A stretch of 64,000 bases of DNA from Chloroflexota bacterium (GTDB lineage: Bacteria; Chloroflexota; Anaerolineae; Anaerolineales; Villigracilaceae): positions 13,789 through 77,788 of the forward strand of contig JACRBI010000052.1 of assembly GCA_016234495.1 (NCBI GenBank). Reading direction: 5' to 3'. Positions 5,033 through 19,985 of the stretch are shown here, one piece after another. The notes under the pieces were generated by a model. The model was not told the DNA's origin. It saw nothing but the letters and a program-made list of their open reading frames with translations, and searched no databases. The position numbers and the translations under genes were made by a program. The first letter of the stretch is position 1, and each line of letters begins with the position of its first letter.

Positions 5033-6322
5033 ATGTCCACAAATGATCGCAAGTTAGGCTTTGCCACCCGCCAGCTTCACGCGGGCTATTCCCCCGACCC
5101 CACTACAGGGAGCCGCGCCGTGCCGTTGTATCAGACAACGAGCTATCAATTCAAGAACACCGAACACGCCGCGAATCTGTTCGCACTCAAAGAGTTGGGA
5201 AATATTTACACGCGTTTGATGAACCCGACCACCGATGTGCTCGAACAGCGCATTGCTTCGCTCGAAGGCGGAGTCGCAGCCCTCGCTTCGAGTTCGGGTC
5301 ATGCCGCGCAGGCGCAGGCGATCTTTACGCTGTGCAACGCGGGCGACCATATCGTGACATCCTCCCGTTTGTACGGCGGGACATACAGCCAGTTCAAGTA
5401 CAGCCTGCCCAAGTTGGGAATCGACGTGACCTTTGTTGACCCCTCCGACCCGAAGAATTTTGAAGCGGCGATCCAGCCGAACACAAAAATCATTTACGGT
5501 GAGACATTGGGCAACCCCGATATTTCCGTCTTCCCGTTTGAGGAAGTTGCGGCGATCGCGAAAAAGCATAATCTCGTATTGTTCATTGATAACACCTTCG
5601 CCACGCCGTACTTGTTCCGTCCGTTTGAATGGGGCGCAAATGTGATCACGCATTCCACAACCAAGTTCATCACCGGCAATGGGACTTCCATCGGCGGCAT
5701 CATCGTGGACGGCGGCAACTACGATTGGACGAGCGCGAAGTTCCCCAACTTCAACACCCCCGACCCGTCTTATCACGGGCTGGTGTACTCCTCCATTGCT
5801 GCGGCGGGACTTCCCCCCTTCGCGATCAAAGCTCGTGTGCATGTGCTGCGTGATATCGGCGCGTGCCAGTCACCGTTCAATTCATGGCAGACCTTGCTCG
5901 GCATCGAAACGCTCAACCTGCGCATGGATCGTCACACGCAGAACGCGCAAGCCGTGGCTGAATTTTTGGAGAAGCACCCGAAGGTCAACTGGGTCAAGTA
6001 TCCCGGGCTCAAGAGTCACCCCGATTACGACCGCGCGAAGAAATATCTTCCAAAGGGCGTCGGCGCGATGATGGGCTTCGGGGTCAAAGGCGGGCTGGAA
6101 GCAGGCAGGAAGTTCATCGAGAGTCTGCAACTGTTCAGCCACGTTGCTAATGTCGGCGACTCGCGCAGCCTTGCCATTCACCCGGGTTCCACCACGCACA
6201 GCCAGTTGACCGAAGAACAGCAGGTCACCGCCGGCGTCAGCCCGGACTTCGTGCGTCTCTCCATCGGTCTCGAGGATATTGATGATATTCTCTGGGATTT
6301 GGATCAGGCGCTCAACGCGTAA
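5033..6322 (+). CDS. metY: O-acetylhomoserine aminocarboxypropyltransferase (sulfhydrylase)
   Basis: [22 protein letters not shown] (PLP Lys), [13 protein letters not shown]. Confidence 0.93.
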
Positions 6323-7309: not shown

Positions 7310-8353
7310 CTACGCGGTTAATTTGATCAGTGCCGCGCACAACACACCCACCGCTTTTTGATAATCCTCCAAATTGATGTGCTCGTTTGGCGTATGGTCC
7401 AGCGCAGAATCACCGGGACCATAAACAAGAGCGGGACATTTCCACACCGGGGCGACGATGTTTAGGTCAGCGGTTCCTGTTTTATAGACGAAACGCGGCT
7501 CCCCGCCCTGTGAGCGGATTCCGCTTAAGAAAGCACGCACCAGCGGAGTATTTTTCCCGCAATCCCACGCAGGGATGGCGAAACCAATTGGCTCGACCTG
7601 CGTTTGCGGCTCGTGAGTGACCATGTTTAGAATCTCGTACCAATCACTGGGCGAAACGGACACAGGCAATCGGACTCCCACCTTTAATCGCGCCCATTGA
7701 TCAAAATCATTCGAGTCTGAATCCATGCCGCGCAAGGTGAGTAATAATTTATCAAACACCTTTTGCTTTTCAGCGTTGAATGAATCCACGTAGGCTTTGA
7801 CTTTCAGCCACGCATCCACCGCCGCTTCCGCCGCGGTCACTTCTCCGCTCGCCGAATGGACTTGTCCGCGCTTGACCGTCACATTTGCCCACGCGCTTCC
7901 TTTATATCCCAGCGCGACTCGATCCCATTGATTCGGTTCGCCGATGATCGCAAAATCAGGCTTGTATTGGGTCGCCACAAATCTCGCGCCTTCGGAATCG
8001 CGCTCCTCCTCCACCGCGCCGATCACAACGAACTGCCAATCATCTTTCGCGCCAACCTTTGCCACCGCATCTACAAAGCACGCCAGCGGACCTTTCGCAT
8101 CGGCAGAGCCGCGCCCGTACAAAACGCCATCATCCACGCGCACGAGAATCTCCCCCGCCACCGTATCAATGTGACCGAGCAACACCACCTGCCGCGCCCC
8201 CTTCCCCATCACGCCGACAGCATTCCCCGCTTCGTCAATGAACGCATCGTCATAACCCAGTGACTTCATCCGCGCCACGAGCCATTCCACCGCGCCGCGC
8301 TCCTGTCCGGAGGGGCTATATTGGGAGACAAGTCCGATTAGTGTTTCGCTCAT
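7310..8353 (-). CDS. lysK: [LysW]-ornithine/lysine hydrolase (M20 family)
   Basis: LLGHIDTV, GRGSADAKG, VEEE, GEPN..LGYKG, YGPGDSALDHTPNE. Confidence 0.88.
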   Translation of the reverse strand: MSETLIGLVSQYSPSGQERGAVEWLVARMKSLGYDDAFIDEAGNAVGVMGKGARQVVLLGHIDTVAGEILVRVDDGVLYGRGSADAKGPLACFVDAVAKVGAKDDWQFVVIGAVEEERDSEGARFVATQYKPDFAIIGEPNQWDRVALGYKGSAWANVTVKRGQVHSASGEVTAAEAAVDAWLKVKAYVDSFNAEKQKVFDKLLLTLRGMDSDSNDFDQWARLKVGVRLPVSVSPSDWYEILNMVTHEPQTQVEPIGFAIPAWDCGKNTPLVRAFLSGIRSQGGEPRFVYKTGTADLNIVAPVWKCPALVYGPGDSALDHTPNEHINLEDYQKAVGVLCAALIKLTA

Positions 8354-8409
8354 TGTGATTCCTGATTCTGGAAAATGGTTGATGGAGAATGGTTTAAATC
8401 CATTTTCCA

Positions 8410-9585
8410 TTAACCATTTATCTCTTGTGTTAAGGCTTCTGCCAAAACATCAACCAGAAGGTCTATTTGTTCGTACGTGATCACCAGCGGCGGCAATAAA
8501 CGAATCACGGTCATACCTGCATTCAAGGCGATGATCTTTTTCTCCTGCAACGTCTTGAGATATGGCGCGACCTTCTGCTTCATTTCAATACCGATCATCA
8601 AGCCAAGTCCGCGCACTTCGCGGATGTTCGGAGATTGAATTGCGCGCAATTTCTCCATCAAATATGCGCCCTTCGCCGCGGCTTGAGCAGGCAGGTCTTC
8701 GTCGCGCATCACATCCAGCGCCGCATTCGCCGCCGCGCACGAAAGCGGATTCCCGCCAAAGGTGGAGCCATGCACGCCGGGCGTCAGGTTCTTCACGTTG
8801 GGTCCGATCAACACCGCGCCCATCGGCACTCCTCCAGCCAGCGACTTGGCACAGGTCAACAGATCAGGCACAACGTCAAAGTGTTGAACCGCGAACATCT
8901 TGCCCGTGCGTCCAAATCCCGTTTGAATTTCATCCACGATCAACAATGCGCCGCGCTCATCGCAAATATTTCGGGCGGCTTGAATGTATTCGAGCGTAGC
9001 GGGATACACTCCGCCTTCTCCTTGCACCACTTCGAGAATCACTGCGGCGGTTTCTTCGTTCACGGCTTTATCCAACGCTTCGATGTTGTTGTATGAAACA
9101 TGCGAAACGCCGGGCAGAAGCGGCTCAAATCCTTCACGATATTTTTTATTGAATGTCGCCGAGAGCGAGCCGAATGTTCTTCCATGAAATGCGCGCATCG
9201 CGGCGATGAAATTTTTTCGTCTAGTGGAAATTCGAGCGAACTTGAACGCCGCCTCCACCGCTTCAGTGCCCGAGTTGCAAAAGAAGACTCGATCCAAGCC
9301 ATCCATCAGCGACGTAATTTTTTGCATCAACATCGCGCGTTGATCGTTCGGGAAGGTCTCGAACAAAGTCACCAGCGTATTCGCCTGCTTGTAGAGCGCC
9401 TCCGCAATTTTTGGGTGCGCATGACCGAGATTGGCAACGCCGTGCCCCGACGAGCAATCCAAATATTCCACGCCGTCAATATCGAACAACGAAGCGCCTT
9501 GTCCGCGAACGATGGTCAGGGTTTGTTTGGCATACACGCCAGAGGTGTGTTTGTTTTCGATTTCGATTATTTCGTTTGCTTTCAT
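8410..9585 (-). CDS. lysJ: [LysW]-semialdehyde transaminase (class III PLP)
   Basis: [35 protein letters not shown]; operon context. Confidence 0.88.
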
Positions 9586-10403
9586 TGAATCACCGTTCCG
9601 TTTCCTGCCAACGCATTCGATATGGGATTTTGAATTCTTCCATCAGCGATAATGACGCGACTCACGCCGCTTTTGAGCGCTTCCTCTGCGCCTAAAACTT
9701 TTTTCTTCATGCGACCCTGCGCCGCTTCACTCGCCGCCGGCAGTTGACTCTGCGGCAGCAGCCGAATGAGCGTGGTCTCGTCTGGGAAATTTTTCATCAG
9801 CCCCGGCACCGCCGTGAGCAACAGCAGAGTCTCCGCCTTGAGCGCAGACGCCACCATCGCCGCCGCGCGGTCAGCATCCACATTCAACGCCTCGCCTTTT
9901 TCGCTGACCGCCACAGGCGCAATCACTGGCAGGTAACCCATGTTCAGCAACACCATTAACAATTCACCATTAACCCTCTCGATCTTTCCCGTGTAATCAT
10001 CGCGGATAATTTTGCGCTTGCCGTTTTCAATGCTCTGCACAGACTCTTTGCGTATGGCTTGGATTAACTTGCCGTCAAGTCCGCATAGCCCAAACGCGTT
10101 GACTCCCAGCATTTGCAACTGTTCCGTCAACAACGAATTGACCTTGCCATTCACCGCCATCAAAAAGATTTCCAGCGTCTTGCGGTCGGTGTAGCGCGAG
10201 GTATAACCCGAAGGCGAAGTGATCATCTTCGGCGGAGCGCCCAACCCTTCACCAAGCGCGTTCGCTTCAGCCGACCCGCCATGCACAAAGACAAGGCGTT
10301 TGCCCTGTTTCAATAATTCCACGGCGTCGGCACAGATCGCAGAAAAATCCACGCCTTCCGTACCACCAAGTTTAACCACTGTAATAGAAGTATCAGTTAA
10401 CAT
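9582..10403 (-). CDS. lysZ: [LysW]-glutamate/aminoadipate kinase
   Basis: VVKLGG, VHGGS, SPSGYTSRYTD, LNVDADRAA, GRMKKK. Confidence 0.9.
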   Translation of the reverse strand: MLTDTSITVVKLGGTEGVDFSAICADAVELLKQGKRLVFVHGGSAEANALGEGLGAPPKMITSPSGYTSRYTDRKTLEIFLMAVNGKVNSLLTEQLQMLGVNAFGLCGLDGKLIQAIRKESVQSIENGKRKIIRDDYTGKIERVNGELLMVLLNMGYLPVIAPVAVSEKGEALNVDADRAAAMVASALKAETLLLLTAVPGLMKNFPDETTLIRLLPQSQLPAASEAAQGRMKKKVLGAEEALKSGVSRVIIADGRIQNPISNALAGNGTVIQ

Positions 10404-10422
10404 AATTCCTGTTCCTAATTTT

Positions 10423-10498
10423 GAAAGGATGAAGGATGAAATATGAAGGATGAATTTTTGCATTCAGTTTTCATCCTTCATCCTTCTGTCTTCATCCT
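10423..10498. repeat. Compound palindrome of 7-nt GGATGAA units
   Basis: GGATGAAGGATGAA..TTCATCCTTCATCC. Confidence 0.8.
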
Positions 10499-11532
10499 TA
10501 AATTGGATGAAGACCCATAAACTCCAGCCCCGTCGTCTCATCCCAACCCATCATCAAATTGAGACACTGAACCGCCGTCCCAGACGCGCCCTTCATGAGA
10601 TTATCAATCGCGCACATTGCCACGATATGACCGTTGCTCTCATCCAGTTCAAAGCCGAGGTCGGCGTAGTTTGAGCCAGCGAGAATCTTCGGTTCAGGGA
10701 CGCGGTAAATCCCCCGCTGTTCCTTCACCACGCGCACGAAGAGATTTTCATTCGCCACGGCACGATACGCCTTCCACAAATCTTTTGTCGCCACGCCAGA
10801 TTTCACTTTGGCGTGAGCCGTCGCCAAAACGCCGCGCACCAAATCCACAGCGGTCATGGTCAGCGAAACATCTTTAACGCCCATCTCTTGAATCACTTCC
10901 GCCGTGTGACGATGACCAAACGCAGAGAACGTCCGTATCACGTTCGCCCGTTCCGCATGAAGCGAACCAGAATTTCCTTCCGCGCCGCCTTCGGAGGAGC
11001 CAACTTTGATTTCAATAAAGATTGGAGAAGATAAGTCCAACAAATCCGCTTTAACGAGCGGCAATAATGCGAGGTTGCTCGCTGTGGCATTGCATCCCAC
11101 CCCGCTGATGTAACTGGCTTTGGAGATTTCTTCGCGATGAAGTTCAGGCAAGCCGTACACAAACTTATTCAACCACTCAGGCGCGGCGTGTTTTTCACCG
11201 TACCATTTTTCGTAGAAGGCAGAGTCTCTTAAACGGAAGTCCGCCGCAAGGTCAATGATGCGCGGCGCAAGTTTTGCATACTGCTCGATGTTATGTTGCG
11301 CCTGTCCGTGCGGCTGCGCGAGGAAGAGAACATCCACAGGCTCCAGCGCGGCAGGATCGCTAAACTTGAGTTGAGTCCGCTTGCGAAGATTCGGGTGGAC
11401 TTGATACACATATTCGCCCAAATGCGAGCGTGACGTCACCTGCTTGATCTCCACATTGGGATGCCCAAGCAGAAGGCGCAATAATTCCCCGCCGCCATAT
11501 CCCGAACCGCCGATGATGGATACTGTTGTCAT
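10498..11532 (-). CDS. lysY: [LysW]-glutamyl/aminoadipyl-phosphate reductase (ArgC-like)
   Basis: IIGGSGYGGGELLRLL, GCNAT, GSSEGG, IDNLMKGASG. Confidence 0.9.
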   Translation of the reverse strand: MTTVSIIGGSGYGGGELLRLLLGHPNVEIKQVTSRSHLGEYVYQVHPNLRKRTQLKFSDPAALEPVDVLFLAQPHGQAQHNIEQYAKLAPRIIDLAADFRLRDSAFYEKWYGEKHAAPEWLNKFVYGLPELHREEISKASYISGVGCNATASNLALLPLVKADLLDLSSPIFIEIKVGSSEGGAEGNSGSLHAERANVIRTFSAFGHRHTAEVIQEMGVKDVSLTMTAVDLVRGVLATAHAKVKSGVATKDLWKAYRAVANENLFVRVVKEQRGIYRVPEPKILAGSNYADLGFELDESNGHIVAMCAIDNLMKGASGTAVQCLNLMMGWDETTGLEFMGLHPI

Positions 11533-11552
11533 CAATCATTACTCCTAAATAT

Positions 11553-11636
11553 TTAACCACAAAGGGCACGAAGGTCACTAAGGAAGAACAAAAAACTTGG
11601 TTTTCCCTTTGTGCTCTTTGTGTCCTTCGTGGTTAA
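11553..11636. repeat. Compound palindrome of 9-nt CACRRAG-like units (family also at 40582-40653 and, in frame, 41402-41476)
   Basis: AACCACAAAGGGCACGAAGGTCACTAAGG...CCTTTGTGCTCTTTGTGTCCTTCGTGGTT. Confidence 0.8.
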
Positions 11637-12499
11637 TTTTTTTCTTTCGCCGTCTTCACCACATATTCCACAATCTCCCCCGCAATATCAATGCCGCTCA
11701 ACGGCTGCATCGTGTGGAATTCCATCGTGTGATTGATCTCGTTGACGACGAGTCCCTTTTGTGGATGCTCCACCAAATCCACACCGAGCAAGCCGCCGCC
11801 AACCGCCTTCGATGCGCGCAAACAAATATCCTCGATCTCTGGCGTGATGGGACACAACTCACCGCTTCCGCCGCGCGCCGTGTTCGTGATCCAATGCTCC
11901 GAGTTGCGATACATCGCCGTCAAGACGCGGTCTCCGATCATAATCGCGCGGATGTCACGCCCGGGCTTCTCGATGTATTCCTGAATATAAAACACGGAAT
12001 GCTGCACCGATCCCAGAGTGGATTTATGTTCAAGCACCGCTTCCGCCGCATCACGGTCATTGACTTTCGCCAGCAGTCGTCCCCACGAACCGACGACAGG
12101 CTTCAACACAACGGGATACCCAAACGCTTCAATCGCTTCGAGTGCGGCTTCGGGCGTAAACGCCGTCGCATTGTGCGGCTGCGGAACTCCGTCACGCGCA
12201 AGGGCCGCGCTGGTCATCAACTTGTCGCCGCAAATCTCCGCCACCGAAGCAGTGTTCACCGTCGGCACACCGAAGGCATTCAACAAGCGCAAGGCATACA
12301 ATCCGCTGTTGTAACTGATGCTGCGCTCCAGCACCGCATCATATTGCTTCCAACTTTCGGGTTTATCCAAATCAAAATGGATCGCGCGGTCATCGAGTCG
12401 GTCATAGTCAATGCCGCGTTTTTCCATCGCGCCGAAAATCCATTTCTCTTCGACGCGCACGCGGGAATAAAGGACGCCTATCTTGAGTCTTCTTTGCAT
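11633..12499 (-). CDS. lysX: LysW ligase, ATP-grasp (LysX/ArgX)
   Basis: [48 protein letters not shown]. Confidence 0.92.
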
Positions 12500-12511
12500 A
12501 AATTCTCCATT

Positions 12512-12574
12512 GGATGACCGTAGACCGTGGACGATAGACCGTTCCACTGTCCACGGTCTATCGTCCATCGTCGG
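12512..12574. repeat. Compound palindrome of 7-nt GACCGTA-like units (family also at 31405-31458, 31950-32003, 33915-34012, 52093-52152)
   Basis: GACCGTAGACCGTGGACGATAGACCG...CGGTCTATCGTCCATCGTC. Confidence 0.8.
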
Positions 12575-12745
12575 TTATTCACCCCAATCTTCCTGTTCCA
12601 TCGGCGCGAGTTGAATTGCCGCAGGGTCAACAGACGTCACTTCGAGATCCACGCCGCAATCCGAGCAGACAATGATTTCGCCAACTTCGGTTCCAGCCGC
12701 CAATTCAACTTGGGCTTCACATTCAGGGCAGGTTACAGTAGACAT
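12575..12745 (-). CDS. lysW: Amino-group carrier protein LysW (56 aa), missing from the ORF track
   Basis: Manual translation MSTVTCPECEAQVELAAGTEVGEIIVCSDCGVDLEVTSVDPAAIQLAPMEQEDWGE*; two CxxC and C-terminal EDWGE. Confidence 0.95.
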   Translation of the reverse strand: MSTVTCPECEAQVELAAGTEVGEIIVCSDCGVDLEVTSVDPAAIQLAPMEQEDWGE

Positions 12746-12748
12746 GAT

Positions 12749-14107
12749 TTATTCTCCTTTGATTTTTTGTATTTGATTTTTTACCGATTGAAGACTCGTG
12801 CCTCCAACCGTATTTCTTTTATTGATCGATTCCAGCGGATCAAAGACCTGATAAACATCCGCTTCAAACGGACCGAGAGCCTGATACGCTTCGAGCGGCA
12901 TTTTCTCCAACGATACATTTCTCTCCCCCGCCTCGCGGACGGCTTTTCCTGCCAGCGAGTGCGCTTCTCTAAACGGCACGCCTTTCACCACGAGATAATC
13001 TGCCAGGTCGGTCGCCATCATCGTGGAATCAATCGCGCCACGCATTCGCTCAGGCCTGGCAGTGATCGTCCGCAGTGCGCCAGCAATGACAGGCAGAATG
13101 GCAAGCAAAGTATCCGTCGCCGCGAAAACGGGTTGCTTGTCTTCCTGTAAATCCTTGTCGTAGGTGGACGGCAACCCTTTGAGCGTGGCAAGCAGACCCG
13201 TTAACATGCCAATCAGCGTGCCAGATTTTCCGCGCGTGAGTTCAAACACATCGGGGTTTTTCTTCTGCGGCATGAGGCTTGAGCCAGTTGAAAACGCATC
13301 CGACAACTCGAAGAATCCAAACTCGGCGCTGGTGTACAAAACAATCTGCTCGGCGAGTTTGCTTAAGTGAATTCCAATCATCGTGGCGCAGAATAAATAT
13401 TCGGCGGCAAAATCTCGGTCGGATACGGAGTCGAGGCTGTTTTGCGAAGGCTCGGCAAAGCCAAGCGACTTTGCCAACGCGGCGCGGTCAACGGGGATGG
13501 GTGTGCCTGCGAGCGCGCCAGAACCAAGAGGCAAAACCGAAAGGCGCGGAATTAAATCTGTGAGGCGTGCGCGGTCACGTCCCAGCGGATGAAAGTGACT
13601 CAGCCACCAATGCGAAAGCAGAATCGGCTGGGCGCGTTGCAGATGGGTGTAGCCCGGCATGATGGTTGCGCCTGCAAGTTCGGCTTGCTCGACAAGAGTA
13701 GTTTGCAGGTTGAGGATTGCGGAATTTAATTGTGGAATTGTCTGCAACATCCACATTCTGAAATCAGTGGCGACTTGGTCGTTGCGGCTGCGTCCCGTGT
13801 GCAGTTTGCCAGCGGCGGGTCCGATCAATTCGCCGAGTCTTCTTTCAACGGCAGTGTGGATGTCTTCGTCAGCGGGAGCGAAGATGAACTCACCCGAAGC
13901 GAATTCTCCTTTGACAGTATCCAGCCCGAGGGCGATCGATGCGTGCTCCTCATCCGAAAGAATGCCCGACTTGTGAATCGCATCTGCCCAAGCGATAGAA
14001 CCATCCACATCCTGAATTGCCATGCGCTGATCGACAGGCAGGGACGAGTTGAGCGCCCATGCGAGGTCATCTAGTTTTTGTGAAAAGCGTCCGCCCCAAA
14101 GGGTCAT
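12749..14107 (-). CDS. argH: Argininosuccinate lyase
   Basis: LWGGRF, LHTGRSRNDQ, MPGYTHLQRAQP, TGSSLMPQKKNPD. Confidence 0.96.
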   Translation of the reverse strand: MTLWGGRFSQKLDDLAWALNSSLPVDQRMAIQDVDGSIAWADAIHKSGILSDEEHASIALGLDTVKGEFASGEFIFAPADEDIHTAVERRLGELIGPAAGKLHTGRSRNDQVATDFRMWMLQTIPQLNSAILNLQTTLVEQAELAGATIMPGYTHLQRAQPILLSHWWLSHFHPLGRDRARLTDLIPRLSVLPLGSGALAGTPIPVDRAALAKSLGFAEPSQNSLDSVSDRDFAAEYLFCATMIGIHLSKLAEQIVLYTSAEFGFFELSDAFSTGSSLMPQKKNPDVFELTRGKSGTLIGMLTGLLATLKGLPSTYDKDLQEDKQPVFAATDTLLAILPVIAGALRTITARPERMRGAIDSTMMATDLADYLVVKGVPFREAHSLAGKAVREAGERNVSLEKMPLEAYQALGPFEADVYQVFDPLESINKRNTVGGTSLQSVKNQIQKIKGE

Positions 14108-14116
14108 AGTTACCTC

Positions 14117-14172
14117 GTTGATTAGGTACTTAGGGATTAGGAATCGGTTTTCCTAATTACCTAATTCCTAAT
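14117..14172. repeat. Compound palindrome of GATTAG-type 7-8-nt units (family also at 16595-16618, 28302-28372, 49305-49369)
   Basis: GATTAGGTACTTAGGGATTAGG...CCTAATTACCTAATTCCTAATC. Confidence 0.75.
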
Positions 14173-15439
14173 CCCTTTTGAACTTCGAATAATCGGGCTT
14201 CGGCATATCGAGACCTGAAACAGGCAGACCGTTCATCGCGCGGACTTTCATGCTAAGACCAAACAGGCGAATGAACCCTTCGGCGTGACTCTGGTCGTAA
14301 ACATCTTCCTGACCAAAGGTGGCGAAATCTTCGCGATATAAACTGAACGGAGATTTGCGCCCCGCGCTGATGATGTTGCCCTTGTAAAGTTTGAGTCGCA
14401 CCGTGCCAGTGACGGGGCCTTGCGTGGAGTTGACGAAGGCATCCAACGCTTCGCGCAGCGGCGTGAACCACAGTCCGTTGTACGTGAGTTCGGCATATTT
14501 GACAGCGACGACCTGTTTGTAGTGCAGGGTTTCGCGGTCGAGGATGAGCGACTCAAGTTCGCGGTGGGCATACAAAAGAATCGCGCCGCCCGGAGTTTCG
14601 TACACGCCATGCGATTTCATGCCGACGAGTCGATTCTCCACAAGGTCAACGCGGCCAATTCCGTGCGCGCCGCCGATGGCGTTGAGCGTTTCGACAATTT
14701 TAGCGGGCGAAAGTTTTTCACCGTTAACCGCAATCGGATTGCCGCTCTCGAATTCGATCTCAACGTATTCACCTTCATCGGGCGCATTTTCCGGTGAAGT
14801 GGACATCTGGTACATGATCTCTTCGGGTTCGTTCCACGGGTCTTCGAGCAAACCGCCTTCGTGCGAAAGATGCCAGAGGTTTGAGTCGCGGCTGTAAATG
14901 GATTTGATGGTGGCGGTCACAGGGACGTTGTGCTTCGCGGCATAAGCGATTGCATCTTCGCGCGAGCGAATGTCCCACTCGCGCCACGGAGCGATGATCT
15001 TGAGTCGCGGGTCGAGCGCCATGACAGTCAACTCAAAACGAACCTGATCATTGCCCTTGCCTGTCGCGCCGTGTGCAATCGCATCTGCACCTGTCTCGTG
15101 AGCCACATCCACGAGATGTTTTGCGATTAGCGGGCGAGCCACGGAGGTGCCGAGCAAATATTTATGCTCGTACACCGCGCCCATCTTCAACATGGGAAAA
15201 AGATAATCAGCGGCGAATTCCTCCTTCATGTCGTGGATGATGAACTGGCTCGCGCCGCTCTTGATTGCCTTCTGTTCAAGCCCCGCCAAATCTTCGTCAC
15301 CCTGACCCACGTCCGCGCAGAAACACACCACTTCACAGCCGTAGTTTTCCTTCAGCCACGGCACGATCACGGACGTATCCAGCCCGCCCGAATAGGCGAG
15401 GACAACTTTCTTTACTTGCGGTTTTGACTTTAGACTCAT
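14168..15439 (-). CDS. argG: Argininosuccinate synthase
   Basis: [30 protein letters not shown]; AGGAG RBS before ATG 15439. Confidence 0.96.
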
Positions 15440-15542
15440 TTTTACTCCTTGATTTTTTTGAACCGCGAAGCCCGCCAAGGGCGCCAAGAAAAAATCTTTT
15501 TTTCTCTTCGCGCACTTCGCGCACTTTGCGGTAAGTTGACCT

Positions 15543-15584
15543 AAAAAAGAAATAAAAACAGCCCTCCGAGAAGGAGGGCTGTTT
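15543..15584 (-). terminator. Intrinsic terminator (attenuator) in the argG leader
   Basis: Minus strand AAACAGCCCTCC-TTCTC-GGAGGGCTGTTT followed by a T-rich tail. Confidence 0.85.
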
Positions 15585-15605
15585 GGGTTGACCTGTGACT
15601 ATTTG

Positions 15606-15713
15606 CTAATTCACATCTGCGTTCGTTCCGCCGTCAAAACAAAAAACTCCCGACCTTCTCTGAGAAGTGGGCTTCGGACGACGTGTACGCGGGAGTGCAA
15701 AAAAGCTGGACAT
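15606..15713 (-). CDS. Arg-rich candidate leader peptide (35 aa, MSSFFALPRTRRPKPTSQRRSGVFCFDGGTNADVN)
   Basis: Manual translation; five Arg codons (CGT, CGT, CGT, AGA, AGG) between promoter and terminator upstream of argG. Confidence 0.7.
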   Translation of the reverse strand: MSSFFALPRTRRPKPTSQRRSGVFCFDGGTNADVN

Positions 15714-15723
15714 GTTGGGCGGT

Positions 15724-15751
15724 ATTCTACTCGAAATGTGAAATGAGTCAA
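15724..15751 (-). promoter_or_regulatory. sigma70-type promoter of the arg/lysW operon leader
   Basis: Minus strand TTGACT-16 nt-TAGAAT. Confidence 0.7.
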
Positions 15752-15797
15752 TGATTTTCGCAGGGCAATTTTATATTGACGCTACCAATCGTATAGG

Positions 15798-16586
15798 TTA
15801 TTTTAAAATCTGTTTCATCATCTGTGAGATGGATTGATAGACGGGGGATTCGTCGCCGAGGTCAATCAACGGCTTGCCTGAAAATTCAAACTCAGAGAGG
15901 ATGTCATCTGCGGGGACAGTGCCAAGCAGGGGCAGATCCATTTTTTCGACGAAGGATCTCAACTCGGCGGGCATATCGCCCCGCAGCCTGTTGACTACGA
16001 CATAGGCATTCTCGATGCTGATGTCAAGTTCCTTGCGCATGTCGGCGATGCGTTGGGCAGTGACCAGCCCGCGCTGGGTCGGGTCGCTGACAATGAGCAG
16101 GTGCTGCACATCACGAGTGGTGCGGCGGGAGAGGTGTTCCATGCCTGCTTCATTATCAATGACGACATAAGCATAATGTTTGCTCATATCGTCAATCACT
16201 TCGCGCAAATTATGATTGACCGCGCAATAGCATCCCTGGCCTTCGCCGCGTCCCATTGCGATCAGGTCAAAGCGCGAGCCTTCAGCCAAAGATGTGCGGA
16301 TGTGATAATCGAGATATTCACGCTTGCTCGCGCCGCCGGGCATGGTGCCCATGGCCGCGCCGCCGTTGGTCAATGACGACTTGACCTGCTCCAACATCCC
16401 TTCGCGGATTTCGCCAACCGTCCATTCGAGGTCGAGGCCAAGCACCATGTTGAGGTTCGAGGCGGGGTCGGCGTCAATGGCGAGAATGCTGCCTGGTTGA
16501 TTCTGGGCAAGGTATTTGATGACCATGCCTGCGATGGTGGTTTTGCCAACTCCGCCTTTTCCGGCTAACGCAATCGTTGTGGTCAT
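15798..16586 (-). CDS. cooC: CooC/AcsF-type nickel-insertion ATPase
   Basis: GKGGVGKTT, DADP, GCYC, IDNEAGMEHLSR. Confidence 0.9.
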   Translation of the reverse strand: MTTTIALAGKGGVGKTTIAGMVIKYLAQNQPGSILAIDADPASNLNMVLGLDLEWTVGEIREGMLEQVKSSLTNGGAAMGTMPGGASKREYLDYHIRTSLAEGSRFDLIAMGRGEGQGCYCAVNHNLREVIDDMSKHYAYVVIDNEAGMEHLSRRTTRDVQHLLIVSDPTQRGLVTAQRIADMRKELDISIENAYVVVNRLRGDMPAELRSFVEKMDLPLLGTVPADDILSEFEFSGKPLIDLGDESPVYQSISQMMKQILK

Positions 16587-16594
16587 GTGATCTC

Positions 16595-17368
16595 CTAATC
16601 TCTAATATCTAATCTCTTGAGAATCTTTTCAGCCGCATCTTTGAGCGCCGGCACATGGTCATACACGGGGATGTTGAGTCTGTCGGCTTCCTGCACTTTC
16701 ATATCAGCAGCGAGGAAGCCGAGGACGGGCAAGCCGGGAGTTTCTGTTTCCAGAAATTTTGCTTCATCCTCGTTGCGGACCTTGTTGCCGACAAGATATA
16801 AACGTTTGAGTCCGATGTCATTGGCGAGTTTTTTGATCTGCGCGGCGGTACCGAGACTGCGGCGGGTGGGTTCGACGACAATGAGCATTGCATCCACGAA
16901 GTCAACTGTGGCGCGGCCAAGATGTTCGACGCCGGCGTACATGTCGAGGAGAAGCACATTGTCTTTGCGGAAGAGCAGATGCGTGAACAAGGTTTTGAGC
17001 ATCGCGGCTTCGGGGCAGATGCAGCCGGAGCCGCCAAGTTCCACGCTGCCCATTTCGAGCAGGCGCACACCGCGGTGGAGAATGCTAAATCGTTCGGGGA
17101 TGTCATCAACACGCGGGTTGATGGTGAAGAAGCCGCCGACGGTGCCGGGCTTTGCACCTGTGCGTTCTTCGATGAGCGAGTCCATCTCGGCGATGGGATG
17201 GAGTTGGGCACGCAGTTCTTCGGGGAAGCCTAATGCTCCAGCGAGGCAGGGGCTTGGGTCGGCGTCCACAGCTAAAACGTCACGGCCCTGATCCGCATAT
17301 GCCTGCGCAAGAAGCGCTGTCAGTGTAGTCTTCCCCACGCCGCCTTTGCCAGTGATCGCAAGTTTCAT
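16595..17368 (-). CDS. cooC: CooC-type nickel-insertion ATPase (second paralog)
   Basis: GKGGVGKTT, DADP, GSGCICPE, DMYAGVEHLGR. Confidence 0.9.
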   Translation of the reverse strand: MKLAITGKGGVGKTTLTALLAQAYADQGRDVLAVDADPSPCLAGALGFPEELRAQLHPIAEMDSLIEERTGAKPGTVGGFFTINPRVDDIPERFSILHRGVRLLEMGSVELGGSGCICPEAAMLKTLFTHLLFRKDNVLLLDMYAGVEHLGRATVDFVDAMLIVVEPTRRSLGTAAQIKKLANDIGLKRLYLVGNKVRNEDEAKFLETETPGLPVLGFLAADMKVQEADRLNIPVYDHVPALKDAAEKILKRLDIRD

Positions 17369-17972: not shown

Positions 17973-19985
17973 ATGCCAAAGAAACGAGAGATTAAAGATT
18001 ATTCAACTGACCCAGCCGCACAGCAGATGTTGATCCGCGCGGATGAGTTGGGAATTGGCACAGCTTTTACCCGCGCAGACGCCATGGTTCCGTGCAATAT
18101 CGGTGGCGCTGGGATGTGCTGCAAGCAATGCGGCATGGGTCCCTGCCGTTTGACCAAGAGCGGCGACACCGGCGTATGCGGCGCGACCATCGACACGATT
18201 CAAGCCCGCAACCTGACGCGCGCAATTGCGGCAGGCGGTGCGGCTCACTCCGACCACGGGCGGGACATGGCGTTCCTGTTGAAGGCGGCTGCCGAAGGAA
18301 AAGCCGAAGGCTACATGATCCGCGATGTGGCAAAACTGCGGATGGTGGCTGGCTATTACAACATCAAGGTGGATGGCCGCAAACCCGAAGAAATTGCGAA
18401 TGATCTGGCTGATCTGTATATTTCGCAATTCGGTCAGCAGCGCGGCGAGATCGTCCCTGCCATCCGCGCGCCCAAAAAGAGACAGCAGCTCTGGCGCGAA
18501 CAAAACGTCTGGCCGCGCGGCGTGGATCGTGAAGTGGTCGAGGCGCTGCACCGCACACACATCGGCGACGACCAGGACCCCGCTCACATTTTGAATCATG
18601 CGATTCGCACCGCGCTGGCCGACGGCTGGGGCGGCTCGATGATCGCAACTGACATCTCGGATATTTTGTTCGGCATACCTGCGCCGATTTTAGGTCAGGC
18701 GAATCTCGGCGTTATTAAAGAAGACATGGTCAACGTGGTGGTGCATGGTCACGAACCTTCGATGAGTGAAATGCTGGTCGCAGCGTCACAAGACCCGGAG
18801 ATCATTGATTATGCAAAGGCGGCCGGCGCGAATGGGATTCAACTTTCGGGAATCTGCTGTACCGCAAACGAAATCCTGATGCGGCAGGGCATCCCTGCGG
18901 CGGGCAACTTCCTGCATCAGGAACTCTCGATCATGACGGGCGCAGTCGAAGCGATGGTCGTGGATGTGCAGTGCATCATGCAGGCGCTGGTCGGTTTGGC
19001 GCAGAACTTCCACACCAAGATCATCACCACTTCACCAAAGGTCAAGATCAAGGGCGCGACACATATTGAATTTGACGAACATCACGCGCTAACCGTTGCA
19101 AGGAATATTCTCAAAGTTGCAATTGATAATTTCAAGAACCGCGACAACAACAAAACACGCATTCCGCAAATCAAAGAAGATTTGATCCCCGGCTTCTCGC
19201 ACGAATATATCAACTACATGCTCGGAGGCTCGTACCGCGCATCCTTCCGCCCGTTGAACGACGCCATCATGACCGGGCGCATTCGCGGCGTGGCGGCGAT
19301 TGTCGGATGCAACAATCCGCGCTCGTCGCAGGATTATTTGCATAACGTGGTCGTGAAGGAATTGCTCAAACAGGATGTGCTGGTGGTGCAGACCGGCTGC
19401 GGCGCGATCTCGTCAGCCAAACTCGGTCTCATGTTGGGCGAAGCAGGCCTGAGCGAAGTCGGAAACGGCTTGCGCGAAATCTGCGAAACGGTGGGAATCC
19501 CGCCAGTCCTGCACATGGGTTCGTGCGTTGACAATACCCGCATCCTGACCGTGTTGACTCAAATGGTGGAAGACGGCGGACTCGGCGATGATATTGACCA
19601 GGTTCCGGCGGTCGGTCTTGCTCCCGAATGGATGAGCGAAAAAGCGCTGGCGATCGCGGCGTACGTGGTTGCTTCGGGCGGATATGTCATCTTCGGCGGC
19701 GCATCACCTGTGAGCGGCATGGAACGAGTCGATGACAGCGACGAAGTGCTGCACTACATCAGCGAAGGCTGGGAAAAACTATACGGCGGCAAGCTGGAGT
19801 TTATTCCCGATCCGCAAAAGATGATCGAAGCCACGCTCGCGCACATTGACAAGAAACGCGCCGCGCTTGGCCTGCCTGAATATGACCCTGATAAATTTGG
19901 CAAATCTGGCGACGCAAAGATGAATGCGCTCGAAGCGATGCCAATTGCGCAGAGACGCGAAGCGATTTACGGAGTAGTCGAATAG
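17973..19985 (+). CDS. cooS: Anaerobic Ni-Fe carbon monoxide dehydrogenase catalytic subunit (AcsA/CooS)
   Basis: CCKQCGMGPC, VHGHEP, GICCTANE, DVQCIM, GCNNP, TGCG, MGSCVDN, WMSEKA. Confidence 0.95.
   Translation: MPKKREIKDYSTDPAAQQMLIRADELGIGTAFTRADAMVPCNIGGAGMCCKQCGMGPCRLTKSGDTGVCGATIDTIQARNLTRAIAAGGAAHSDHGRDMAFLLKAAAEGKAEGYMIRDVAKLRMVAGYYNIKVDGRKPEEIANDLADLYISQFGQQRGEIVPAIRAPKKRQQLWREQNVWPRGVDREVVEALHRTHIGDDQDPAHILNHAIRTALADGWGGSMIATDISDILFGIPAPILGQANLGVIKEDMVNVVVHGHEPSMSEMLVAASQDPEIIDYAKAAGANGIQLSGICCTANEILMRQGIPAAGNFLHQELSIMTGAVEAMVVDVQCIMQALVGLAQNFHTKIITTSPKVKIKGATHIEFDEHHALTVARNILKVAIDNFKNRDNNKTRIPQIKEDLIPGFSHEYINYMLGGSYRASFRPLNDAIMTGRIRGVAAIVGCNNPRSSQDYLHNVVVKELLKQDVLVVQTGCGAISSAKLGLMLGEAGLSEVGNGLREICETVGIPPVLHMGSCVDNTRILTVLTQMVEDGGLGDDIDQVPAVGLAPEWMSEKALAIAAYVVASGGYVIFGGASPVSGMERVDDSDEVLHYISEGWEKLYGGKLEFIPDPQKMIEATLAHIDKKRAALGLPEYDPDKFGKSGDAKMNALEAMPIAQRREAIYGVVE

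Follow-up and report, generated by a model that had tools for sequence, protein, structure and literature searches.

A putative arginine-codon leader-peptide attenuator upstream of the argG operon in Anaerolineae

The argG-argH-lysWXYZJK operon of a Chloroflexota bacterium of the order Anaerolineales (GenBank assembly GCA_016234495.1) lies in a 64,000-nucleotide (nt) stretch of contig JACRBI010000052.1, which was analysed as a whole and is referred to below as the window. The operon is preceded by a short leader. With a probability of roughly 0.8, we consider it a transcription attenuator of the ribosome-mediated, leader-peptide kind, responsive to charged arginyl-tRNA and governing the genes downstream. 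A short leader open reading frame (ORF), conserved cognate codons, an intrinsic terminator and a mutually exclusive antiterminator, as expected of this class of attenuator, were all found. Arginine-sensing attenuation through a translated leader had been proposed in a first-pass annotation of the same DNA, and it is supported here in silico by the conservation of a tandem pair of arginine codons (Arg-Arg, RR), by covariation in the antiterminator (helix 2:3) and the terminator (helix 3:4), and by a predicted fold switch. Coordinates are those of the window, and all leader features lie on the minus strand unless stated (Table 1).

Conservation of the leader upstream of argG

The leader region is intergenic and, on the minus strand, is bounded by argG (ATG at 15439) and a gene for a CooC/MinD-like ATPase (15798-16586). 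The three elements that the first-pass annotation had read there, a promoter, a 35-codon ORF and a strong terminator ahead of argG, were all recovered. The promoter, TTGACT/TAGAAT, fits the consensus at 10/12 positions, and three promoter-like sites were seen in the scanned region against 0.7 expected. No Shine-Dalgarno sequence precedes the ORF, whose ATG stands some 10 nt past the -10 box, so that the ORF appears to be nearly leaderless, with a predicted 5' untranslated region (UTR) of 2-4 nt.

The leader was compared across 80 argG loci, one genome per species, all of them metagenome-assembled genomes (MAGs) or isolates of Anaerolineae, in which argG is 70-95% identical to that of the window. 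The promoter, the ATG without a Shine-Dalgarno sequence, a short ORF with an RR pair, an RNA motif and a terminator are shared, upstream of argG, by 68 of the 80 loci. With the same architecture in so many relatives the leader is more than chance, and by this comparison it is a conserved unit. The equivalent ORFs in the 68 relatives are 17-37 codons long. A promoter matching at least 8/12 positions, of the form TTGAC-16/17 nt-TAnAAT, was found in 61/68, and in 46 of those 61 the -10 box ends exactly 10 nt 5' of the leader ATG. A GGAG/GAGG/AGGA motif precedes the leader ATG in none of the 68 relatives, against 51/68 for the argG start. Cultured carriers include Anaerolinea thermolimosa IMO-1 (L070) and an A. 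thermophila strain. The element is absent from L073-L076 and L078-L080, seven loci that include MAGs of Ardenticatenaceae and Promineifilum, and five others were left unscored, two being cut at a contig end (L006, L026), two lacking the RR pair (L025, L034) and one being unclear (L066).

The stretch that separates the -10 box from the ATG is conserved and GC-rich, its 10 nt reading ACCGCCCAAC in the window (15714-15723) and ACCGCCCAAY in most relatives; a discriminator of this kind is not usual in promoters of amino-acid biosynthesis.

A covariance model, R1, built from 29 close sequences gave one full-length match per locus, immediately upstream of argG and on the same strand, including many distant sequences on which it had not been trained. 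It gave a single match in the window (15550-15698, minus strand), and regular-expression and covariance-model searches of the window and of the remainder of the loci found no further leader copies. A metagenome scan with the pattern CGTCGT-N18-30-GAAGGTYGGG returned 120 loci, of which only L198 was a real leader, the pattern being too unspecific to reveal a wider regulon.

Arginine codons and signs of translation

The RR pair is invariant in the 68 leaders, mostly as RxRR or RRPRR and with up to six Arg codons per leader; the check that had been suggested, conservation of Arg codons upstream of argG in Anaerolineae, thus gave a positive answer. The pair varies synonymously, being CGT CGT in most leaders, CGA CGA in L049, L062 and L067-71, CGG CGG in L033 and CGT CGC in several. 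The distance from the ATG to the pair takes eight different lengths between 24 and 45 nt, every one of them a multiple of three. Beyond the pair, the distance to the RNA motif of segment 2 ranges from 21 to 37 nt, mostly 24-26, and falls into all classes modulo three (21-28 nt after the last RR in 60/68). The motif itself stands in reading frame 0, 1 or 2 in 19, 29 and 20 leaders, where it is read as QRRSG, EKVG or REGR. The position of the leader stop codon ranges from 15 nt short of the motif end to 43 nt beyond it, and the peptide beyond RR is not conserved. Three signatures, the constant frame between ATG and RR, the synonymous variation of RR and the occurrence of the motif in all frames, therefore point to translation up to the Arg codons and to constraint at the RNA level thereafter.

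No amino acid other than Arg is enriched in the leader peptides, and no Lys codon is conserved. The Arg codons are also set apart by usage, CGT accounting for 168/231 of those in the leaders as against 19/153 in the genes of the window, which favour CGC (86/153).

The first-pass annotation had counted five Arg codons in the leader, AGA AGG among them. All five are present, but only R9, R11 and R12 are conserved. The AGA and AGG codons (15659-54) lie inside the segment 2 motif and, since this motif is read in all three frames, they are best taken as accidents of frame, which leaves R9, R11 and R12 as the only candidate regulatory codons. Both AGA/AGG as regulatory codons and a critical position of the stop codon were ruled out, as each varies between relatives.

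In two of the unscored loci the tandem pair has been lost, L025 having CGT CAT (R-H) and L034 CGA ACC CGA ACT (RTRT), while two separated Arg codons and the RNA elements are kept. Such natural variants could help to show what number of Arg codons the system requires.

Competing helices and the terminator

Helix statistics were obtained from a 29-sequence alignment of close relatives with explicit pair counts, and duplex tests were run sequence by sequence on the 68 leaders; RNAalifold returned no structure for the full 68-sequence alignment, which was too gappy. The central element is segment 2, whose motif (A/G)GAAGGT(C/T)GGG is nearly invariant across the 68 leaders.

The terminator (helix 3:4) of the window has a predicted energy of -21.8 kcal/mol (z = -7.4). 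Among the close relatives 96.8% of cells are paired and six pairs show compensatory change, a result as good being reached by 0/500 shuffles. The relatives' terminators are GC-rich, of the form GCCCTCCTTC...GGAGGGC followed by a T-run, and stand 21-218 nt ahead of argG.

In the antiterminator (helix 2:3) of the window, CCUUCUC (15574-68) pairs with GAGAAGG (15660-54) and CCC (15578-76) with GGG. The same complementarity was detected independently as inverted repeat I1, in which GAGAAGGTCGGG is complementary to the terminator 5' arm and loop. In the alignment 93.8% of cells are paired, against 45-75% in slid controls, with three compensatory pairs, equalled by 1/500 shuffles. When segment 2 of each of the 68 leaders was set against its own terminator arm the duplex energy was -16.1 kcal/mol, compared with -13.8 +/- 0.24 kcal/mol for permuted partners, and 0/5000 permutations were as good. 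The two sides also change together in individual leaders, as GAGAAAG/CTTTCTC in L011, GAGAG/CTCTC in L018 and GGGG/CCCC in L060 and L064. The antiterminator conformation of the window (-30.0 kcal/mol, z = -2.3) extends through pairing of the U-rich tract with a conserved A-rich GUCAACCCAAAC before the terminator. This pairing accounts for the U-rich tract that the earlier reading had placed, correctly, after CGGGAG inside the ORF. In this region TTTTTGTTTGGATGATGG is conserved in the main group of relatives, and the tract may also be a pause site.

The third helix, 1:2, would act as a protector, or anti-antiterminator. It consists of CUUC:GAAG, CCC:GGG and a basal stem which, in the predicted fold, is closed by the Arg codons, CGUCGUC[C], and the GACGGCG that follows the U-tract (GGAUGAUG in most relatives). 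The protector is paired in 90.8% of cells in the 29 relatives, against 35-51% in slid controls, and in the duplex test of own against permuted partners 0/5000 permutations did as well. The sequences CTTCTC (15667-62), GAGAAGG and CCTTCTC, from which a 1:2 / 2:3 / 3:4-like arrangement had been proposed, were all found in place and the comparison supports the arrangement, although the predicted helix 1:2 is larger than the CTTCTC/GAGAAG pairing first described.

Some features of these segments stand apart from their pairing. The sequences of the terminator 5' arm and of segment 2 are conserved across the 68 genomes beyond the needs of pairing. Segment 2 (GAAGG, within 15647-15660) and the terminator 3' arm (GGAGGG, within 15556-15584) are Shine-Dalgarno-like, and the terminator 5' arm CCCUCCUUC looks similar to the anti-Shine-Dalgarno sequence of 16S rRNA. 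The terminator is flanked by an 8-nt direct repeat, AGGTCAAC (family D4, minus strand), at 15587-15594 and 15535-15542; the upstream copy lies within the conserved antiterminator partner, and the downstream copy, present in the window only, may be chance.

Simulated switch and proposed mechanism

The switch was simulated on transcripts ending before the terminator 3' arm, with a 28-nt ribosome footprint masked and the antiterminator scored when at least six segment 2:3 pairs formed. It was predicted in 12/68 free RNAs, in 59/68 with the footprint at the last RR and in 25/68 with the footprint at the stop codon. As the ribosomal A-site was slid codon by codon, the antiterminator fraction held at 0.85-0.87 from -1 to +3 around the second Arg and dropped to 0-0.06 at +6 to +14 codons. 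This plateau and collapse would make the Arg codons the last positions at which a stalled ribosome still frees segment 2, and in these modelled folds the placement of the codons is what an attenuation model requires.

The working model infers where transcription starts, that the ORF is translated, that ribosomes stall, that there is pausing at the U-tract and that the leader responds to arginine; the leader would then work as follows. Transcription would start a few nt before the leader ATG, and a ribosome would load on the nearly leaderless ORF. When arginine is ample, it would pass R-x-R-R and move on over or beyond segment 2, which would be covered or else recaptured by segment 1; the 3:4 terminator would form and RNA polymerase would stop before argG. 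When arginine is scarce, the ribosome would stall at CGU CGU, its footprint covering segment 1, including the basal stem of the Arg codons and CCCAC. Segment 2 (GAGAAGGUCGGG and the U-tract) would be left free to pair with the newly transcribed 5' arm and loop of the terminator, and once 2:3 had formed the terminator would be blocked and the operon transcribed.

Several points weigh against this mechanism. Within the close group of 29 relatives the changes in the protector helix are one-sided only, and the 1:2 hairpin of the window (-17.5 kcal/mol, z = 0.23) is no stabler than shuffled sequence, so that its support is comparative. The minimum-energy fold of the free window RNA already contains 2:3 and, 1:2 being weak, the OFF state would have to rely on the order of folding during transcription. 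The shuffle and permutation counts given above were obtained from phylogenetically related sequences and overstate independence. Only two or three Arg codons are available and there is no Shine-Dalgarno sequence, and efficient leaderless initiation in Chloroflexota is assumed. A search of RNA runs found none that holds the locus of the window itself. Sparse metatranscriptome contigs of the relatives cover the leader at low depth without defining its 5' or 3' ends; one of them bridges leader, terminator and argG, but its depth is low and it may reflect carry-over of DNA. Finally, predicted attenuators of actinobacterial ilvB and leuA proved unresponsive to mutation of their regulatory codons (PMC1262725).

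Alternative explanations

The same RNA switch could be operated by a different sensor, a nascent P-R-x-R-R-P-x-P chain, together with Pro codons, which arrests the ribosome on free arginine or a related metabolite, in the way of the fungal arginine attenuator peptide, bacterial SpeFL and TnaC, and not via uncharged tRNA-Arg. In keeping with such a chain, the flanks of RR are conserved in the close group (LPRTRRPKP), Pro13 is kept through synonymous CCG/CCC/CCT/CCA, and several distant leaders have PPP or RRPRP. Outside the close group, however, the flanks vary freely (RRT, RRI, RRF, RRM, RRK, RRE, RRL), and the runs rich in Pro fall on segment 1, whose C-rich sequence has to pair with the G-rich segment 2, so that RNA constraints explain the prolines. 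Moreover, a stall induced by arginine would here turn the operon on at high arginine, the wrong sign for biosynthesis, and arrest by the peptide seems to us quite unlikely. A bolder version would have a conserved P-R-x-R-R-P-x-P chain, encoded by a nearly leaderless ORF, act as an arginine-responsive arrest peptide; with the first ribosome obligatorily coupled to RNA polymerase, it would be the sole arginine regulator of Anaerolineales, in place of ArgR. This version is an unlikely one.

Attenuation by a stalled ribosome supposes that the ORF is translated. If it were not, an RNA switch that binds a protein or a metabolite, in the manner of TRAP/PyrR or a riboswitch, might select between antiterminator and terminator, and the conservation of segment 2 and the terminator arm far beyond pairing needs, the missing Shine-Dalgarno sequence and the lack of double-sided covariation in helix 1:2 would all be in keeping with this. 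We nevertheless hold it to be very unlikely, as all eight ATG-to-RR spacer lengths are multiples of three, the Arg codons vary synonymously with the amino acid kept, the ATG holds a constant 10-nt distance from the -10 box, no Rfam family is matched, and apart from the three competing helices nothing resembles a conserved, aptamer-like core of several helices.

A translated ORF could also report something other than arginine, either general translation capacity or the coupling of ribosome and RNA polymerase, or it could act through mRNA stability or Rho as does Salmonella speF orf34. That just two or three Arg codons are involved, and that these are CGU, read by the major tRNA-Arg, would suit such a role, for which the control exerted by two consecutive Arg codons via RNase G and Rho is a precedent (PMC6386406). 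The RR pair is, however, invariant, relatives carry up to six Arg codons without enrichment of any other amino acid, the intrinsic terminator is strong and covaries, and the regulated genes make arginine; this account is therefore highly improbable.

That the leader regulates nothing, its ORF being fortuitous or encoding a small protein, its terminator ending an upstream transcript or a small RNA, and argG having its own promoter downstream, is hardly credible: the terminator-argG spacer reaches as much as 218 nt in some loci and holds a large hairpin in the window, but the leader always travels with argG while the upstream genes differ, the spacer shrinks to 26 nt in several relatives, too little for a promoter, neither frame nor length is conserved in the C-terminal half of the peptide, and a scan between terminator and argG found no promoter-like site.

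Operon and genomic context

The operon as a whole occupies 7310..15439 on the minus strand and, judged by its gene families, is one for arginine biosynthesis via the LysW carrier-protein route. The order leader-argG-argH-lysW-lysX-argC is kept in 54 related loci, and it is plausible, from this and from the lack of a conserved Lys codon in the leader, that the LysW genes serve arginine synthesis. The upstream neighbour varies between loci, and a CooC gene occurs at that spot in no relative.

Table 1. Features of the leader and the downstream operon in the window.
Feature	Coordinates	Strand	Description
Promoter, sigma-70-type	15724..15751	-	-35 TTGACT 15751-15746, 16-nt spacer, -10 TAGAAT 15729-15724
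Leader ORF	15606..15713	-	35 codons and TAG stop; ATG at 15713; predicted 35-aa product MSSFFALPRTRRPKPTSQRRSGVFCFDGGTNADVN
Candidate regulatory Arg codons	15678..15689	-	CGT R9 15689-87, ACA T10 (not Arg), CGT CGT R11-R12 15683-78
Segment 1, 5' side of putative protector (anti-antiterminator)	15664..15695	-	CUCCCG 15695-90, CGUCGUC 15683-77, CCCACUUC 15671-64; overlaps Arg codons
Segment 2, putative central switch	15647..15660	-	GAGAAGGUCGGGAG; partner is segment 1 or segment 3
U-rich tract, then GACGGCG	15629..15646	-	UUUUUUGUUUU (15646-15636), directly after CGGGAG; from folds
Segment 3, terminator 5' arm	15568..15594	-	GUCAACCCAAACAGCCCUCC and loop UUCUC; also antiterminator partner of segment 2
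Intrinsic terminator, helix 3:4	15543..15584	-	12-bp stem 15584-15556, AAACAGCCCTCC-TTCTC-GGAGGGCTGTTT, then T-run TTATTTCTTTTTT
argG	14168-15439	-	NCBIfam equivalog
argH	12749-14107	-	NCBIfam equivalog
lysW	12575-12745	-	NCBIfam equivalog
lysX	11633-12568	-	NCBIfam equivalog
argC/lysY	10498-11535	-	NCBIfam equivalog
lysZ	9582-10463	-	NCBIfam equivalog
lysJ	8410-9585	-	NCBIfam equivalog
lysK	7310-8410	-	NCBIfam equivalog

Between the terminator and the argG Shine-Dalgarno sequence lies a long imperfect hairpin (15462-15532, minus strand; -41.8 kcal/mol, z = -5.9), which holds 9-nt internal sub-repeats, GCGCGAAGT GCGCGAAGA ... CTTGGCGCC CTTGGCGGG. It was ruled out as part of the switch, as it varies between relatives, some of which have different palindromic inserts at the same spot: GTAACGCAGGCTTAAGCCTGCGTTAC in L001 and CCCTCACCC...GGGAGAGGGG in L004, L006 and L017. 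A similarly built hairpin, ACGAAGGACACAAAGAGCACAAAGG ... CCTTAGTGACCTTCGTGCCCTTTGTGG, stands between lysX and argC (11536-11632, minus strand). These intergenic hairpins look like members of a REP-like (repetitive extragenic palindromic) or MITE-like (miniature inverted-repeat transposable element) family outside the attenuator.

In six loci (L012, L013, L016, L023, L025, L037) a second LysX/RimK-like paralogue, on the same strand as argG and some 1-1.3 kb before it, adjoins the leader on its upstream side. It is about 52% identical to the window's LysX and may act as another carrier-protein ligase, with a different specificity. In the window this position is taken by two CooC/MinD-like ATPase genes (15798-17368, minus strand). 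The ORFs beyond them (670 and 776 aa, large and divergent; 17973-19985, plus strand) look, from translations read by eye, like a carbon monoxide (CO) dehydrogenase/acetyl-CoA synthase cluster. The ATPase and CO dehydrogenase-like genes are absent at this position in the relatives and are unrelated to the attenuator. Elsewhere in the window, an S-adenosylmethionine (SAM) riboswitch (RF00162, 4793-4911, plus strand; 76.9 bits, E = 4.9e-16) lies upstream of a 429-aa ORF (5033-6322).

Comparison with known systems

Arginine genes are regarded as the domain of ArgR repressors and T-boxes (PMC1262725). Both serve the same purpose as is proposed for the leader, feedback on arginine genes, and T-boxes likewise sense the charging of tRNA-Arg with a terminator/antiterminator pair. 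The leader differs in having no T-box or specifier structure and no ARG-box match at its promoter, and in that sensing would occur via the translating ribosome. An Rfam search of the 801-nt region gave no T-box match even at E-values up to 10. No ARG box was found at 15700-15800 in a consensus scan allowing up to three mismatches, and ARG-box-like counts across the whole window were at chance level, both with an E. coli-type consensus that may not fit Chloroflexota. No Rfam match reached its gathering score, the best being Phe_leader (RF01859), which covered the terminator alone at 29.6 bits against a gathering score of 55, and three leader peptides had no match in NCBIfam or Pfam even at E-values up to 10. 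A published compilation lists RNA-level control of arginine genes as T-boxes and attenuators for other amino acids (PMC1262725), and no report of an Arg-codon attenuator of an arg operon was found in the literature searched, subscription literature lying outside the search.

Two other systems share parts of this design. Salmonella speF orf34 has two consecutive Arg codons, and there too ribosome speed reports arginine through alternative mRNA structures. It differs in controlling ornithine decarboxylase, and so polyamine synthesis and not arginine biosynthesis, and in acting by Rho-dependent termination, sequestration of the ribosome-binding site and RNase G decay without an intrinsic-terminator attenuator; the two have no sequence relationship (PMC6386406). 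The polycysteine leaderless small ORFs of mycobacteria, which act as cysteine-responsive attenuators, are likewise (nearly) leaderless first cistrons of a biosynthetic operon, enriched in cognate codons, in which ribosome progress controls downstream expression (bioRxiv 10.1101/834739). Unlike them, the leader described here specifies a different amino acid, has a canonical intrinsic terminator and an antiterminator that covary, and has a predicted 5' UTR of 2-4 nt, not zero.

A conserved arginine-codon attenuator would be a new specificity for leader-peptide attenuation and would extend this mechanism to Chloroflexota, a phylum whose regulation has been little studied. It would also tie the genes of the LysW carrier-protein set to the synthesis of arginine and not of lysine. 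The near-leaderless ORF without a Shine-Dalgarno sequence could serve as a natural test case for the coupling of translation and transcription, and the alignment and model R1 could seed a new RNA family.

For Trp, His, Leu, Thr, Phe and Ile/Val, attenuation by a leader peptide is textbook knowledge, and trpL makes do with as few as two regulatory codons. Compared with these classical attenuators, the leader stands apart in its arginine specificity, its lack of a Shine-Dalgarno sequence, its nearly leaderless ORF and its Chloroflexota host, and it has no similarity to them in sequence or model. It matches none of the models for trpL, hisL or pheL, yet it looks as if it works as they do. Like trpL, hisL, leuL, thrL, pheL and ilvL of Proteobacteria, it has a short ORF with tandem codons for the end product of the pathway. 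It also shares with the classical attenuators segments 1-4, here predicted to form mutually exclusive helices 1:2, 2:3 and 3:4, a terminator before the first structural gene, and a U-rich tract after the 1:2 hairpin as a possible pause site.

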